From: an uncultured Bacteroidales bacterium | Lineage (GTDB): Bacteria > Bacteroidota > Bacteroidia > Bacteroidales > TTA-H9 | Direction: 5' to 3' | Length of the DNA stretch: 64,000 bases | Assembly (NCBI GenBank): GCA_964444785.1 | Contig: CAYUII010000016.1 | Location: forward strand, 16,897-80,896 | Part shown: positions 59,122 through 64,000 of the stretch, one piece after another | How positions within the stretch are numbered: the first letter of the stretch is position 1 | Layout of the letters: each line of letters opens with the position of its first letter | Translations under genes and position numbers: made by a program | The notes under the pieces: model-generated | What the model saw: the letters and a program-made list of their open reading frames with translations, nothing else | What the model was told of the DNA's origin: nothing | The model's database searches: none

Positions 59122-60309
59122 ATGAAATTACTGCAACAAAAATTGGCAAAATACGACATTCCACAAAAAGCTCAACAAATGGGAATTTACCCCTATTTCA
59201 GAGTTATTGAGTCAGAACAAGATACTGAAGTTCTGATTGGTGGAAAAAAGGTTTTGATGTTCGGTTCTAACTCATATTTAGGACTCACTAGTCACCCAAG
59301 AGTAAAAGAAGGTGCTATTAAAGCAGTAGAGCGATATGGGAGTGGCTGTGCTGGATCAAGGTTTCTGAATGGCACCCTAGACATTCACATAGAGCTTGAG
59401 GATCGTTTGGCAAAGTTTGTTGGAAAAGAAGAGACCATAGTATATAGTGCTGGCTTTTTGGTAAACTTAGGGGTCATTTCAACTATTACGGGTAGGGATG
59501 ATTATATTATTTTAGATGAATTAGTTCATGCCTCAATCATTGAAGGAAGAAGACTGAGCTTTTCACAAGCTTTCAAATATAAACACAATGACATGGCATC
59601 ACTGGAGAAAGCTCTTAAACAGTGTAAGCCTGACAAAATTAAACTCATCGTTGTTGATGGAATCTTTAGCATGGAAGGAGATATTGCGAAACTTCCAGAA
59701 ATCATCGCACTAGCTAAGCAATATGATGCAACGGTAATGGTTGATGATGCCCACTCTTTAGGGGTCATTGGTCATAATGGTGCTGGAACTTCTTCTCATT
59801 TTGGCTTAACTGACGACACAGACCTGATCATGGGAACCTTCAGTAAGTCTCTTGCATCTATTGGAGGCTTTATAGCTTCTGATAAAGACACCATCAATTT
59901 TCTAAAGCACAATAGCCGATCGTTAATTTTTAGTGCTAGTATTTCCCCTGCCTCTGCAGGCAGTGTTTTAGCTGCTTTAGATGTAATTGAGGAGAATCCT
60001 GGAATTATTCAAGATCTGTGGAATAACACAAATTATGCTCTTGATGGATTTAGAAACATGGGATTTGACACAGGTTTGACTGAGTCACCCATTATCCCTC
60101 TATTCATTAGAGATAATGCCAAGACATTCAAATTCACAAAACTACTTTTAGAAGAAGGGATCTTTGTTAATCCTGTGGTTGCCCCAGCTGTACCACCAGA
60201 TTCTACCCTCATTCGATTCTCTCTAATGGCAACCCATACTAAGGAACAAATAGATAGAGCTTTGGAAATTTGCCAAAAAGTAGGAAAAAAGCTTGATATT
60301 TTACGTTAA
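59122..60309 (+). CDS. Alpha-oxoamine synthase family enzyme, serine palmitoyltransferase-like (could also be a cysteate/other amino-acid C-acyltransferase)
   Basis: 395 aa. The N-terminus [29 protein letters not shown]...FGSNSYLGL resembles Bacteroidota SPTs. PLP Lys in [13 protein letters not shown]. Confidence 0.85.
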
Positions 60310-60311
60310 AA

Positions 60312-60344
60312 GTAAGTTATTGTAATTGTTTATCAATAACTTAC
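60312..60344 (+). other. Perfect 11-bp AT-rich hairpin between the SPT-like gene and the first GNAT-like gene
   Basis: GTAAGTTATTG / CAATAACTTAC with an 11-nt loop. No U-tract follows. Confidence 0.5.
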
Positions 60345-60412
60345 ATAAAAAAGATAATTATTCTGGCGTTTATGATGTGACCGCTGAAAGACAAATTGAT
60401 AACACATGAACC

Positions 60413-61571: not shown

Positions 61572-62693
61572 ATGCCAATAGAAATCAGGGAGGTAAAATC
61601 TAAGCGAGAGCTTAATCAGTTTATTAAACTACCTTTTGAACTGTACAAAAACAATCCCTATTGGGTTCCACCAATCATAATGGAGGAAAAAATGACCTTT
61701 ACTAAAGGTAAAAATCCTGCTCTTGATTTCTGTGATCTGAAACTTTTTCTTGCCTTTAAAAACAATAAGGCTGTAGGTAGAATTGCTGCAATAATCAATC
61801 ATAAAGCTAATGAAGTATGGAATGGTAAACACGCCCGATTTGGCTGGATTGACTTTATAGACGACATTGAAGTCTCGTCTGCTCTCTTTGAAGCAGCTGA
61901 ATTGTTTGCAAAAGAGAAAGGCATGGAGGCAATTCATGGCCCATTAGGCTTTACTGATTTCGACAAAGAAGGAATGCTTATTTTTGGATTTAACGAGTTA
62001 GGGACAACCGCTACCATTTATAACCACCCATACTATCAGAATCATACTGAATCCGCTGGTTATATCAAGGATGCTGATTGGGTTGAGTTCGAAATCAAAG
62101 CAGACATTACTTTACCTGAAAAACATGCCAGAATTGCTGAACTAGTAAAACAGAGAAATGGGTTGAAACTCTTAAATGCAAAATCAAAAAAAGAACTTAT
62201 CCCATATATCCCTCAAATATTTGAACTAATTAATGAGTCATATCGTGAAATATATGGATTTGTTCCAGCAACACCCGAGCAAATCAAATATTACACTAAA
62301 CTGTATTTTGGTTTCGTTAACCCAGAGTTTGTTCCCGTTGTTCTAAACTCTGAAAATAAAGTTGTTGGTGTCGGAATCACTATGCCAAATGTGAGTAAGG
62401 CCCTTCAGAAGGCTCAAGGGAAACTCTTTCCATTCGGCTTTATTTATCTTCTCAGAGCATTGAAAAAGATGGATACTGTTGATTTTTATTTGACAGCTAT
62501 CAAACCAGAATTGCAAAACAAAGGAATAAATGCACTACTTTTTGCTCAACTTATTCCAGTATATAACAAATACAAGATTCTTAAAGCAGAAACCAACATA
62601 GAATTAGAAGAAAACCACAAGATTCAAAATATGTGGGAAGATTTTGAAAAGAGAAATCATAAACGCAGAAGAGCTTATATAAAACACTTCTAA
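61572..62693 (+). CDS. Uncharacterised acyl-CoA N-acyltransferase-like protein, paralog 2
   Basis: RFGWIDFIDD, GPLGFTDFD, IKDADWVEFEIK, HKRRRAYIKHF. Tandem duplicate of the preceding gene, 4-nt spacer. Confidence 0.5.
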   Translation: MPIEIREVKSKRELNQFIKLPFELYKNNPYWVPPIIMEEKMTFTKGKNPALDFCDLKLFLAFKNNKAVGRIAAIINHKANEVWNGKHARFGWIDFIDDIEVSSALFEAAELFAKEKGMEAIHGPLGFTDFDKEGMLIFGFNELGTTATIYNHPYYQNHTESAGYIKDADWVEFEIKADITLPEKHARIAELVKQRNGLKLLNAKSKKELIPYIPQIFELINESYREIYGFVPATPEQIKYYTKLYFGFVNPEFVPVVLNSENKVVGVGITMPNVSKALQKAQGKLFPFGFIYLLRALKKMDTVDFYLTAIKPELQNKGINALLFAQLIPVYNKYKILKAETNIELEENHKIQNMWEDFEKRNHKRRRAYIKHF

Positions 62694-62745
62694 ATCATCT
62701 CTTTTCCCCATATTTACACTTCCCTCTTAAACCACTGAAATTGGA

Positions 62746-63792
62746 ATGGCAAAAAAAGAAATAATCTATTTCGACCGCAATGAAAATCATTATGGTCCGG
62801 CTCCGGCCTGTTTTAAATCGCTGACAAAGCCTAATTTTAAAAAAATGAGCAATTACTCTCGCGATTTTTCACGCGGAGTAAAAAGTAAGCTATCTGAACG
62901 ATTAGCCAATGATTTGCAAATTGAGGAATCTAGAATTTTATTAGGCTATGGTGGAGAAGATATTCTAAAGCAGGCCGTCCATTGCTATGTTAGCAAAGGT
63001 GATAAAATCCTAATCCCAACATATTCATGGTGGTATTACAAAGCAATTGCCGATGAAGTAGGAGGAATTAAAATAGAGTATCCTATTGAAATTCAGCAGG
63101 ACACATTCGTTTACAATGTCGAAGAAATGATAAGAATCTTTGAAAACGAAAAACCAAAACTTGCCCTCATCTCTTCACCAAATAATCCGACAGGAAATGC
63201 AATTAGTAAGGATGACTTAATCAGATTCCTAGATGCTAGTAAGGATATAACAGTAGTTATAGACGAAGCCTATACTCTTTTTGCCGATCCAGACACTAGC
63301 TATCTCCATGACTTAGTCAATGCTTATCCTAATCTTTTAATCATTAGAACTTTTTCAAAATATTATGCATTAGCAGGAGTTCGGGTTGGCTACGCTTTAA
63401 TGGGAACAAACCATGCTCGTTTTAATAGATTTTCGGCAAGGTATCTTGGTTACAATAGGATTTCAGAAAGAATTGCTATTGCAGCTTTAGACTCTCCAGA
63501 GTATTATGAAGAGATGAGACAAAGCATGTTGGCCGATCTAGATATGTTTTTTAATGAGTTCAAACAACTTAAAGGCTTCAGGGCTTTTAGGTCATTGGCT
63601 AACTTCATTCTTGTCGAAATACCGGAAGAAATAAAGGTTCCTATGAAAAATTATCTTGTAGAACGTGGTTTGATTGTAAAATTCATGGACGAAGATAATC
63701 TTACGCATCACATTCGTGTTTCTTTAGGAACGCCAGAAGAGAATAGATTATTAATGCAAACTATTAAAGAATTTGTAGCTAGCAGAGTTTAA
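62746..63792 (+). CDS. Class I/II aminotransferase, HisC/CobD-like
   Basis: YFDRNENHYGP start, SPNNPTGN, and PLP Lys in RTFSKYYALAGVRVGY. Confidence 0.75.
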   Translation: MAKKEIIYFDRNENHYGPAPACFKSLTKPNFKKMSNYSRDFSRGVKSKLSERLANDLQIEESRILLGYGGEDILKQAVHCYVSKGDKILIPTYSWWYYKAIADEVGGIKIEYPIEIQQDTFVYNVEEMIRIFENEKPKLALISSPNNPTGNAISKDDLIRFLDASKDITVVIDEAYTLFADPDTSYLHDLVNAYPNLLIIRTFSKYYALAGVRVGYALMGTNHARFNRFSARYLGYNRISERIAIAALDSPEYYEEMRQSMLADLDMFFNEFKQLKGFRAFRSLANFILVEIPEEIKVPMKNYLVERGLIVKFMDEDNLTHHIRVSLGTPEENRLLMQTIKEFVASRV

Positions 63793-64000
63793 TGATTAAA
63801 AACTGGTTTATTGAATACAAGAGATCACTCAAAGCCATCGAGATTGAAGAGATACCCGATCTGATTTTTTACCGTCCGATTGCTTTTCTATTTGTAAAGA
63901 CAATCTATAAAACAAATATTACCCCTAACCAAATTACATTAACAGCTATGTTACTTGGTGTAATTGGTGGTTGCGTTGCTATGATAGGTGGTAAGGAGGC
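63792..64000 (+). CDS. CDP-alcohol phosphatidyltransferase-like membrane protein (5' part only, runs off the window)
   Basis: The ATG overlaps the preceding TAA (TAATG). The translation MIKNWFIEYKRSLKAIEIEEIPDLIFYRPIAFLFVKTIYKTNITPNQITLTAMLLGVIGG matches the usual N-terminal RP...TPNQIT...G layout of this family. The catalytic DG..AR motif would lie beyond the window. Confidence 0.45.
   Translation, partial: MIKNWFIEYKRSLKAIEIEEIPDLIFYRPIAFLFVKTIYKTNITPNQITLTAMLLGVIGGCVAMIGGKE

Follow-up and report, generated by a model that had tools for sequence, protein, structure and literature searches.

Five genes that appear to be devoted to sphingolipid formation lie at the end of a 64,000-nucleotide stretch of DNA from an uncultured Bacteroidales bacterium (GenBank assembly GCA_964444785.1, contig CAYUII010000016.1); this whole stretch is referred to here as the window. 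The open reading frame (ORF) listing of the window places them in one direction on the + strand between positions 59122 and 64000, as follows (aa, amino acids):

59122-60309, + strand: alpha-oxoamine synthase (AOS) gene, spt, 395 aa
60413-61567, + strand: paralog A, 384 aa
61572-62693, + strand: paralog B, 373 aa
62746-63792, + strand: HisC-like gene, 348 aa
63792-64000, + strand: CDP-alcohol transferase gene (CDP-OH1), N-terminal 69 aa only; the full 296-aa gene is at L001:10511-11401

The spacers between genes 1 and 2, 2 and 3, and 3 and 4 measure 103, 4 and 52 nt, and the HisC-like gene meets the fifth ORF in a TAATG with a 1-nt overlap, in agreement with an earlier note made from the letters of this DNA. 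The cluster was also said there to continue beyond the window, and indeed the array runs for about ten further genes on L001 and in close relatives. L001 is a 13.8-kb sludge-metagenome contig that was retrieved by exact look-up of the HisC-like protein and is 100% identical to the window over the last 501 bases, the part compared. On this contig the 296-aa CDP-alcohol phosphotransferase is followed, with an 11-nt overlap, by a 251-aa nucleoside triphosphate (NTP) transferase (NTP1), a 265-aa LysE-type membrane protein that overlaps NTP1 by 1 nt and, 337 nt further on, a second NTP transferase (NTP2). L001 ends within NTP2, and the first 182 aa of this protein are all that is on record of the downstream inositol-lipid module for the genome to which the window belongs.

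The whole array is visible in L082 (NCBI assembly GCA_003575145.1), a close relative with proteins 77-96% identical. Its first half reads serine palmitoyltransferase (SPT), GNAT-A, GNAT-B, HisC-like, CDP-OH1, NTP1 and LysE-like, and its second half NTP2, TetR, a 274-aa RimK/ATP-grasp-like protein, CDP-OH2, LPG-synthase-TM, a HAD hydrolase and inositol-phosphate synthase (MIPS). L084 and L085 extend the array by a DUF5686/CarboxypepD_reg outer-membrane protein. The order is repeated in L085, L116 and L002, the last being a Bacteroidales metagenome-assembled genome (MAG) with proteins 41-81% identical; since gene order is kept in these loci at only 40-80% protein identity, the arrangement is not due to chance, and co-conservation of the genes in related genomes is thereby established. 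Metagenomes from sludge, fresh water and bioanodes contain the sequence, as do metatranscriptomic runs. Taken as a whole, the explanation that best fits these data, and which we consider likely, is that the window genes represent the 5' third of an operon-like array of about 15 genes for sphingophospholipid synthesis in a single uncultured member of the Bacteroidales of sludge and fresh water.

The cluster starts about 2.5 kb downstream of dnaA. Upstream of it (window positions 49727-54394 and 55116-58959) are found a 1555-aa TPR-repeat protein, dnaA, a low-molecular-weight phosphatase, a PALP-family enzyme and a 241-aa protein, and this upstream gene order is common to L082, L084, L085 and L116.

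The predicted serine palmitoyltransferase and paired acyltransferases

The AOS passes the NCBIfam equivalog model for Bacteroidota SPT (NF047600; 682.3 bits, cutoff 640) and falls far below the respective cutoffs of the BioF, KBL, ALAS and CqsA models. Its best match among solved structures is the SPT of Sphingobacterium multivorum (3A2B/8GUH; 527 bits), to which it aligns without gaps over 390 residues and with conservation of the GTFSKS motif that carries the pyridoxal phosphate (PLP) lysine. Scores against related enzymes were lower: 317 bits for BioF/KBL-like proteins, 253 for cysteate-C-fatty acyltransferase (28EH), 239 for SulA (7U7H) and about 200 for BioF. Identity to homologs of gut Bacteroidales is 62-71%, and no biotin genes occur among the downstream genes inspected on L001 and in its relatives. 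A published criterion for SPT is an Ala at the position where SulA has Lys281 (PMC9304779). Gene 1 is predicted from these comparisons to be a Bacteroidota-type SPT, in line with the earlier suggestion that the AOS starts sphingolipid synthesis, and the observations that would have pointed to BioF, namely grouping with this enzyme and biotin genes downstream, were not made. All these AOS enzymes have a common fold and all the scores are significant, which leaves some room for sulfonolipid (cysteate) or biotin/KBL chemistry; given that the SPT equivalog is passed, that the other models and structures score far lower and that biotin genes are missing nearby, the BioF, KBL and sulfonolipid readings were dropped as highly improbable.

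Paralogs A and B are 43% identical, without gaps over 371 residues, and neither has a match in Pfam or NCBIfam, even at E = 10. An AlphaFold (AF2) model built from 30 homologs (predicted local distance difference test 84, predicted template-modelling score 0.83) returned tandem-GNAT enzymes as the best matches in Foldseek (E 1e-12, TM 0.5-0.58), including glucosamine N-acetyltransferase, MAB_4324, the clavulanate tandem GNAT, MshD, Eis, NMT and FemX. The family profile gave only weak matches to PDB sequences, at the C-terminal GNAT motif; this C-terminal half of the family has a CoA-binding-type motif, with a YpeA/RimI match over the CoA-binding region. On the basis of the model, both paralogs are predicted to adopt a tandem-GNAT acyltransferase fold.

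The family to which they belong comprises more than 7800 clusters at E < 1e-20 and is spread over Bacteroidota, Cloacimonadota, Spirochaetota, Chloroflexota, Ignavibacteriota and others. In a synteny set of 80 genome loci plus L001, SPT accompanies the family in 22 of the 81 loci, and in 18 loci a triad is formed by SPT, GNAT and a NAD-dependent epimerase-family reductase of about 333 aa. A link to the bacterial ceramide synthase (bCerS) family emerged from tblastn of plasmid and secondary-replicon records. Homologs in Bacteroides finegoldii and Phocaeicola (50% identical to paralog B) and in Prevotella (47%) are not beside spt, and those in Sphingomonas parapaucimobilis and Roseomonas are 26-27% identical. 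In pairwise alignment with the Sphingomonas cluster protein, paralog B matches from end to end at 27% identity (E 3e-40), and paralog A within residues 3-311 at 26% (E 1e-28). The Sphingomonas gene order is cerR-like, acyl carrier protein, spt, lptF, lptG, desaturase and GNAT, and the Roseomonas homolog is placed between lptF/G with the desaturase and a nucleotidyltransferase, adjoining a CDP-alcohol transferase and a phosphoesterase. The Caulobacter map has cerS (CC_1154) at the corresponding position of its sphingolipid cluster (PMC11324152). Because the alphaproteobacterial homologs occupy this position, both paralogs were filed in the bCerS family, an assignment supported through synteny, not through direct comparison with CCNA_01212 or BF9343_4218. 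Together with the predicted fold, this homology upholds the N-acyltransferase-like character that had been ascribed to the pair. The CerS of Bacteroides was itself identified as a homolog of Caulobacter bCerS and then confirmed in a knockout (bioRxiv 10.1101/2023.05.23.541633).

The literature describes the bCerS of Bacteroidota as not clustered with spt, and this had prompted the idea that the tandem-GNAT family is a new SPT partner, non-orthologous to bCerS; the idea was dropped after homologs were found in gut Bacteroides and at the cerS position of Sphingomonas and Roseomonas.

The two copies differ in their relationships. In a rough neighbour-joining tree paralog A belongs to a deep clade in which all six members directly follow SPT, and paralog B groups with second copies, nearer to the general family. 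Single-copy SPT-linked homologs are closer to paralog B than to A. L003 has an A-type protein as its sole copy, and both paralogs retain all 48 invariant positions of the family.

An AOS gene adjacent to a tandem-GNAT gene was also noticed on plasmids of Aureispira anguillae (56015-58572) and Rubrobacter radiotolerans (14362-16564), the latter pair being actinobacterial; these proteins are 44-45% (AOS) and 29% (GNAT) identical to those of the window. In L024 and L029 (Ohtaekwangia, Cyclobacteriaceae) the GNAT gene and its flanks are kept at the place where related Chitinophagia and Cytophagia carry SPT, GNAT and reductase; SPT is missing there and a different gene of 325 aa replaces the reductase.

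The predicted head-group cassette and inositol-lipid module

Gene 4 encodes a class I/II PLP enzyme (PF00155) whose nearest relative is HisC. It reaches neither the cutoff of the HisC equivalog TIGR01141 (229.5 bits, cutoff 276.55) nor that of CobD TIGR01140 (130 bits, cutoff 290.55). It retains the NENxYGP arm typical of the HisC N-terminus as well as the SK motif with the PLP lysine. The protein aligns end to end with true HisC (160 bits) and from residue 48 only with the serine-phosphate decarboxylase-like structure 6OUX (98 bits), the N-terminal arm being left unaligned. This structure is that of SMUL_1544, an enzyme of norcobamide synthesis. A subfamily signature, SWWYYK / YSRD, is conserved in 45 cassette copies of the HisC-like enzyme. 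A housekeeping hisC was considered and rejected, as the protein scores below the equivalog cutoff and its gene is embedded in a cassette in about 50 loci. The HisC-like arm and the model scores tip the prediction modestly towards a transaminase over a decarboxylase.

The fifth gene was called a CDP-alcohol phosphatidyltransferase in the earlier note. The complete 296-aa protein on L001 bears this out, with a match to PF01066 (E 1.4e-13) and, at residues 85-110, the full signature DCSDGQLAR-x8-GRIIDGVAD (family pattern DxxDGxxAR-x8-GxxxDxxxD); the motif itself lies outside the 69 aa present in the window, so this evidence comes from the part beyond it. The signature is retained in 70 of 76 family members compared; at E <= 1e-10 the CDP-OH1 family counts 355 members. 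The closest solved relatives are AF2299 and IPCT-DIPPS, users of soluble CDP-alcohols. The nearest relatives of NTP1 are the phosphocholine cytidylyltransferase LicC and the Treponema fusion of PntC with an aminotransferase, an enzyme for aminoethylphosphonate.

A metagenome scan with CDP-OH1 as query yielded 77 loci. In about 50 of them the HisC-like, CDP-OH1, NTP1 and LysE-like genes occur together in the same order, overlapping or nearly touching; of 49 pairs there in which the HisC-like gene and CDP-OH1 adjoin, 48 have the HisC-like gene immediately upstream. The cassette is joined to spt-bcerS only in L082/L084, L085, L115/L116 and L002; its flanks elsewhere, arsenic-resistance (ars) genes and a gliding (gld) ABC transporter, are uninformative on function. 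It would seem to be an independent unit, for which a ceramide acceptor is suggested by this locus and four or five relatives only.

The series of PLP enzyme, cytidylyltransferase and CDP-alcohol phosphotransferase follows the logic of the Kennedy pathway for a small amino-alcohol phosphate, and the head group installed by the cassette is probably a phospho-amino-alcohol. Precedents for the first step are the PLP enzymes Cj1437, which converts dihydroxyacetone phosphate (DHAP) to serinol phosphate, and Cj1436, which converts phosphoserine to ethanolamine phosphate (PMC12409886). Literature searches brought up no described bacterial route to sphingolipids by phosphoserine decarboxylase and CDP-ethanolamine. 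The idea that the aminotransferase makes the head-group precursor for a CDP-alcohol transferase, put forward in the earlier note, has been strengthened by the LicC/PntC-like cytidylyltransferase next downstream; its connection with sphingolipids is held back by the occurrence of the cassette mostly away from SPT.

A different Kennedy-like set was seen in Parabacteroides distasonis (L164:5768-8701), with a small cytidylyltransferase, a short-chain dehydrogenase/reductase, a CDP-alcohol transferase and a lysophospholipid acyltransferase; the CDP-alcohol transferase of this set shares 40% identity with CDP-OH1 in the N-terminal half of the latter.

Downstream of the cassette, the inositol-lipid module comprises NTP2, a protein of about 275 aa, CDP-OH2, LPG-synthase-TM, HAD, MIPS and DUF5686. 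In L082, L084, L085, L116 and L002, MIPS, NTP transferase, CDP-alcohol phosphatidyltransferase and HAD are all present, ordered, directly after the cassette. A cluster of B. finegoldii has the same gene set in nearly the same order as this downstream half of the array, and the set also matches a putative alternative inositol-lipid pathway of the Bacteroides vulgatus type (Heaver et al. 2022, PMC9246714).

CDP-OH2 (L082:18188-19093, L002:18218-19123, L165:6965-7870, L164:6983-7870) has Gly in place of the fourth signature Asp (GRILDGxxG). The Gly variant includes the B. finegoldii and P. distasonis relatives; CDP-OH1 keeps the Asp in the 70 of 76 members given above. A CarboxypepD_reg + DUF5686 outer-membrane protein of about 850 aa recurs beside spt-bcerS-cerR triads and MIPS clusters (L004:13298-15862; L003, L056, L079, L084, L085 and L165:1411-3963) and may be a sphingolipid- or inositol-lipid-associated component, BT_1527-like as in PMC9246714.

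Transcription and nearby sequence elements

Contigs from four RNA runs, which carry no strand information, cover 59.06-64.0 kb and bridge all four gene junctions of the cluster, from SPT through A, B and the HisC-like gene to CDP-OH1; runs X6 and X7 carry identical contigs. They begin at 59056-59080, and in three of the four runs none lies on 58402-59004, so that spt does not seem to share a transcript with the upstream genes. Together with the candidate box listed first below, these data fit a transcript that starts just upstream of spt. Two sequence elements were noted:

59029-59036, + strand: candidate Bacteroidota -7 box, TAtaTTTG, read from the sequence
60312-60344, + strand: perfect 11-bp inverted repeat, GTAAGTTATTG ... 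CAATAACTTAC, 3 nt past the SPT stop codon, with no T-run

The -7 promoter consensus of Bacteroidota is TAnnTTTG. A scan for sigma-70 promoters and intrinsic terminators gave hits at chance level only, as expected in Bacteroidota. The inverted repeat occurs once in the window and in none of the other 159 loci, and it is contained in an insertion of about 80 nt relative to L082, where the corresponding spacer is 23 nt. One RNA run has a word-depth spike of 53.8 and loose contig ends at this repeat.

Proposed pathway, alternatives and known systems

In the proposed pathway, Spt would form 3-ketosphinganine from serine and an acyl thioester, and one or both bCerS-family paralogs would N-acylate the long-chain base to (keto)dihydroceramide, two steps supported by homology; the reductase would be encoded elsewhere. 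The HisC-like PLP enzyme may convert a central phosphorylated metabolite into a small phospho-amino-alcohol, the lead candidates being serinol phosphate, from DHAP by transamination, and ethanolamine phosphate, from phosphoserine by decarboxylation. The LicC/PntC-like cytidylyltransferase would activate this product with CTP, and by a Kennedy-type reaction the AF2299/DIPPS-like CDP-OH1 would load the phospho-head group onto the 1-OH of ceramide. Membrane passage of the precursor or of the lipid may fall to the LysE-like membrane protein. Downstream, inositol-phosphate synthase, the second nucleotidyltransferase, the second CDP-alcohol transferase, LPG-synthase-TM and the HAD hydrolase would constitute a second Kennedy-type module for inositol-phosphate lipids. 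Two phosphate head groups on ceramide lipids are thus predicted for the array, one of them via the four-gene cassette. The part played by each paralog, a CDP-amino-alcohol as cassette product and ceramide as its acceptor are what we infer from this arrangement. It is proposed tentatively, as a possibility short of an expectation, that the cassette is an undescribed bacterial Kennedy-type route in which a phospho-amino-alcohol is made de novo and put on ceramide, with paralog A serving a dedicated ceramide pool or acylating the head group. If true, a new class of sphingophospholipid, e.g., ceramide phosphoserinol, or the first bacterial CDP-ethanolamine:ceramide pathway would be at hand.

Several observations weigh against this assignment to ceramide lipids. 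The cassette stands apart from SPT in about 45 of 50 loci, and the organism-named CDP-OH1 members belong to uncultured Bacteroidota, Ignavibacteriota and Calditrichota; on these grounds the acceptor could be diacylglycerol. Gut Bacteroides make phosphoethanolamine dihydroceramide and have no CDP-OH1 ortholog, their nearest protein being of the CDP-OH2 type and about 25% identical, so that the cassette is not a general route to that lipid. L116 (6286-18000) keeps SPT, both GNATs, CDP-OH1, NTP1, the LysE-like gene and the inositol module and lacks the HisC-like gene; the head-group precursor must come from elsewhere there. A CerR-like reductase was not found in the 64-kb window or among the annotated genes downstream, and the unstranded RNA-run contigs may include DNA. 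The bCerS membership of the paralogs rests on alphaproteobacterial homologs recognised through synteny, and many genomes have the tandem-GNAT family with no SPT nearby. A full-length distant member with about 29% identity is YghO of E. coli (yghO is also found in Pseudomonas); its presence in organisms that make no sphingolipids indicates that the substrate range of the family is probably wider than ceramide synthesis.

Two alternatives draw on these points. The four-gene cassette might make a glycerophospholipid by transferring the phospho-amino-alcohol to diacylglycerol, its adjacency to spt-bcerS then reflecting a lipid-gene island. Such a product would be compatible with the 45 or so loci that have no SPT or bCerS within reach, with the unrelated ars and gld ABC neighbours, with the Ignavibacteriota and Calditrichota MAGs and with AF2299 and DIPPS, for which ceramide is not the substrate. 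It agrees less well with at least four lineages, only 40-80% identical in their proteins, in which the cassette is inserted after bcerS and ahead of the inositol module with junctions that overlap or leave very short gaps, or with the RNA contigs that link bCerS B to the HisC-like gene and the latter to CDP-OH1; besides, Bacteroidota already obtain phosphatidylethanolamine by the PssA/Psd route. This alternative is regarded as somewhat unlikely, though it retains appreciable weight. The other concerns the acyltransferases, one or both of which might acylate or aminoacylate an amine other than the long-chain base, for instance the amino group of the new head group or, in making a lipoamino acid, an amino acid, or might O-acylate a 3-OH fatty acid. 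The very large size of the family, the lack of SPT near most members outside Bacteroidota, the occurrence of YghO in a bacterium that makes no sphingolipids, the separate deep clade of paralog A and the retrieval by Foldseek of FemX, MprF-C and aminoacyl-tRNA-dependent enzymes are in its favour. Yet every A-type copy comes immediately after SPT and in L003 no other copy is present, both paralogs have the full set of invariant family positions, the recognisable CoA-binding-type motif argues against tRNA dependence and the alphaproteobacterial homologs are found at the cerS position; a function other than ceramide synthesis is accordingly judged unlikely.

For the reading preferred here, an array for sphingophospholipids, the type of pathway is known or already proposed in its parts: Spt, bCerS, CDP-alcohol-based head groups and the alternative inositol cluster. 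What is new is the fusion of these parts, physical and transcriptional, in one array, a bCerS duplication in which one type is divergent and adjoins SPT, and the head-group cassette itself, widely conserved and uncharacterised. The attachment of phospho-amino-alcohol head groups to ceramide is an unsettled matter in bacteria; in its treatment of head-group enzymes, a review on the sphingolipids of Bacteroidota from 2023 names those for inositol and galactosyl groups and none for phosphoethanolamine dihydroceramide (PMC10191378). The four genes between the ceramide genes and the inositol module are concrete candidates for cloning and assay, the paralogs form a natural bCerS pair for studies of substrate specificity, and the fused locus would allow a test of the alternative inositol pathway, which is as yet unconfirmed. 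The contiguity of spt, bcerS and often cerR in environmental Bacteroidota, unlike gut Bacteroides, should also be of use in annotating sphingolipid producers in metagenomes.

With Kennedy-type routes (LicC/PntC) the cassette has in common an amino-alcohol-phosphate cytidylyltransferase followed by a CDP-alcohol phosphotransferase acting on a lipid alcohol. Ceramide phosphoethanolamine synthase of Drosophila is a CDP-alcohol phosphotransferase that uses CDP-ethanolamine and ceramide. The difference lies in the precursor, which would here come de novo from a PLP enzyme dedicated to it. Cj1437, Cj1436 and SMUL_1544 are likewise PLP enzymes that produce amino-alcohol phosphates from central metabolites, but their products enter capsule amides or norcobamide, not lipids; Cj1436 and Cj1437 were compared by description only.

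The Spt-bCerS-CerR pathway of Caulobacter and Sphingomonas, reportedly described by Stankeviciute in 2022 and Olea-Ozuna in 2021, resembles the present one in combining SPT with a soluble tandem-GNAT N-acyltransferase of one family (26-27% identity), and its NAD-epimerase-type reductase has an adjacent counterpart in many other Bacteroidota. The Caulobacter cluster also includes a nucleotidyltransferase and a CDP-alcohol transferase, which were proposed for head-group synthesis. In contrast to it, the Bacteroidales locus has two bCerS copies and lacks acpR, aasR and cerR, the absence of acpR and aasR being explained by the use of acyl-CoA by the Spt of Bacteroidota; and the head group is phosphoglycerate in Caulobacter, whereas an amino-alcohol phosphate and an inositol phosphate are predicted here.

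The Bacteroides genes (BT_0870 / BF spt; BF9343_4218 cerS; BF9343_4240 cerR) represent a system closer in sequence, homologs in gut Bacteroidales being 62-71% (SPT) and 50% (paralog B) identical. The earlier note held contiguity to be unusual beside the dispersed genes of Bacteroides, and this proved right: in gut Bacteroides and Prevotella the sphingolipid genes are on separate fragments or 1 Mb apart, while here they are contiguous with head-group genes. Finally, the inositol cluster of the B. vulgatus type shares with the array MIPS, an NTP transferase, a protein of about 275-290 aa, a CDP-alcohol transferase, LPG-synthase-TM, HAD and DUF5686, and differs from it in that these genes are here fused to spt, bcerS and the extra head-group cassette, with the addition of a TetR regulator.

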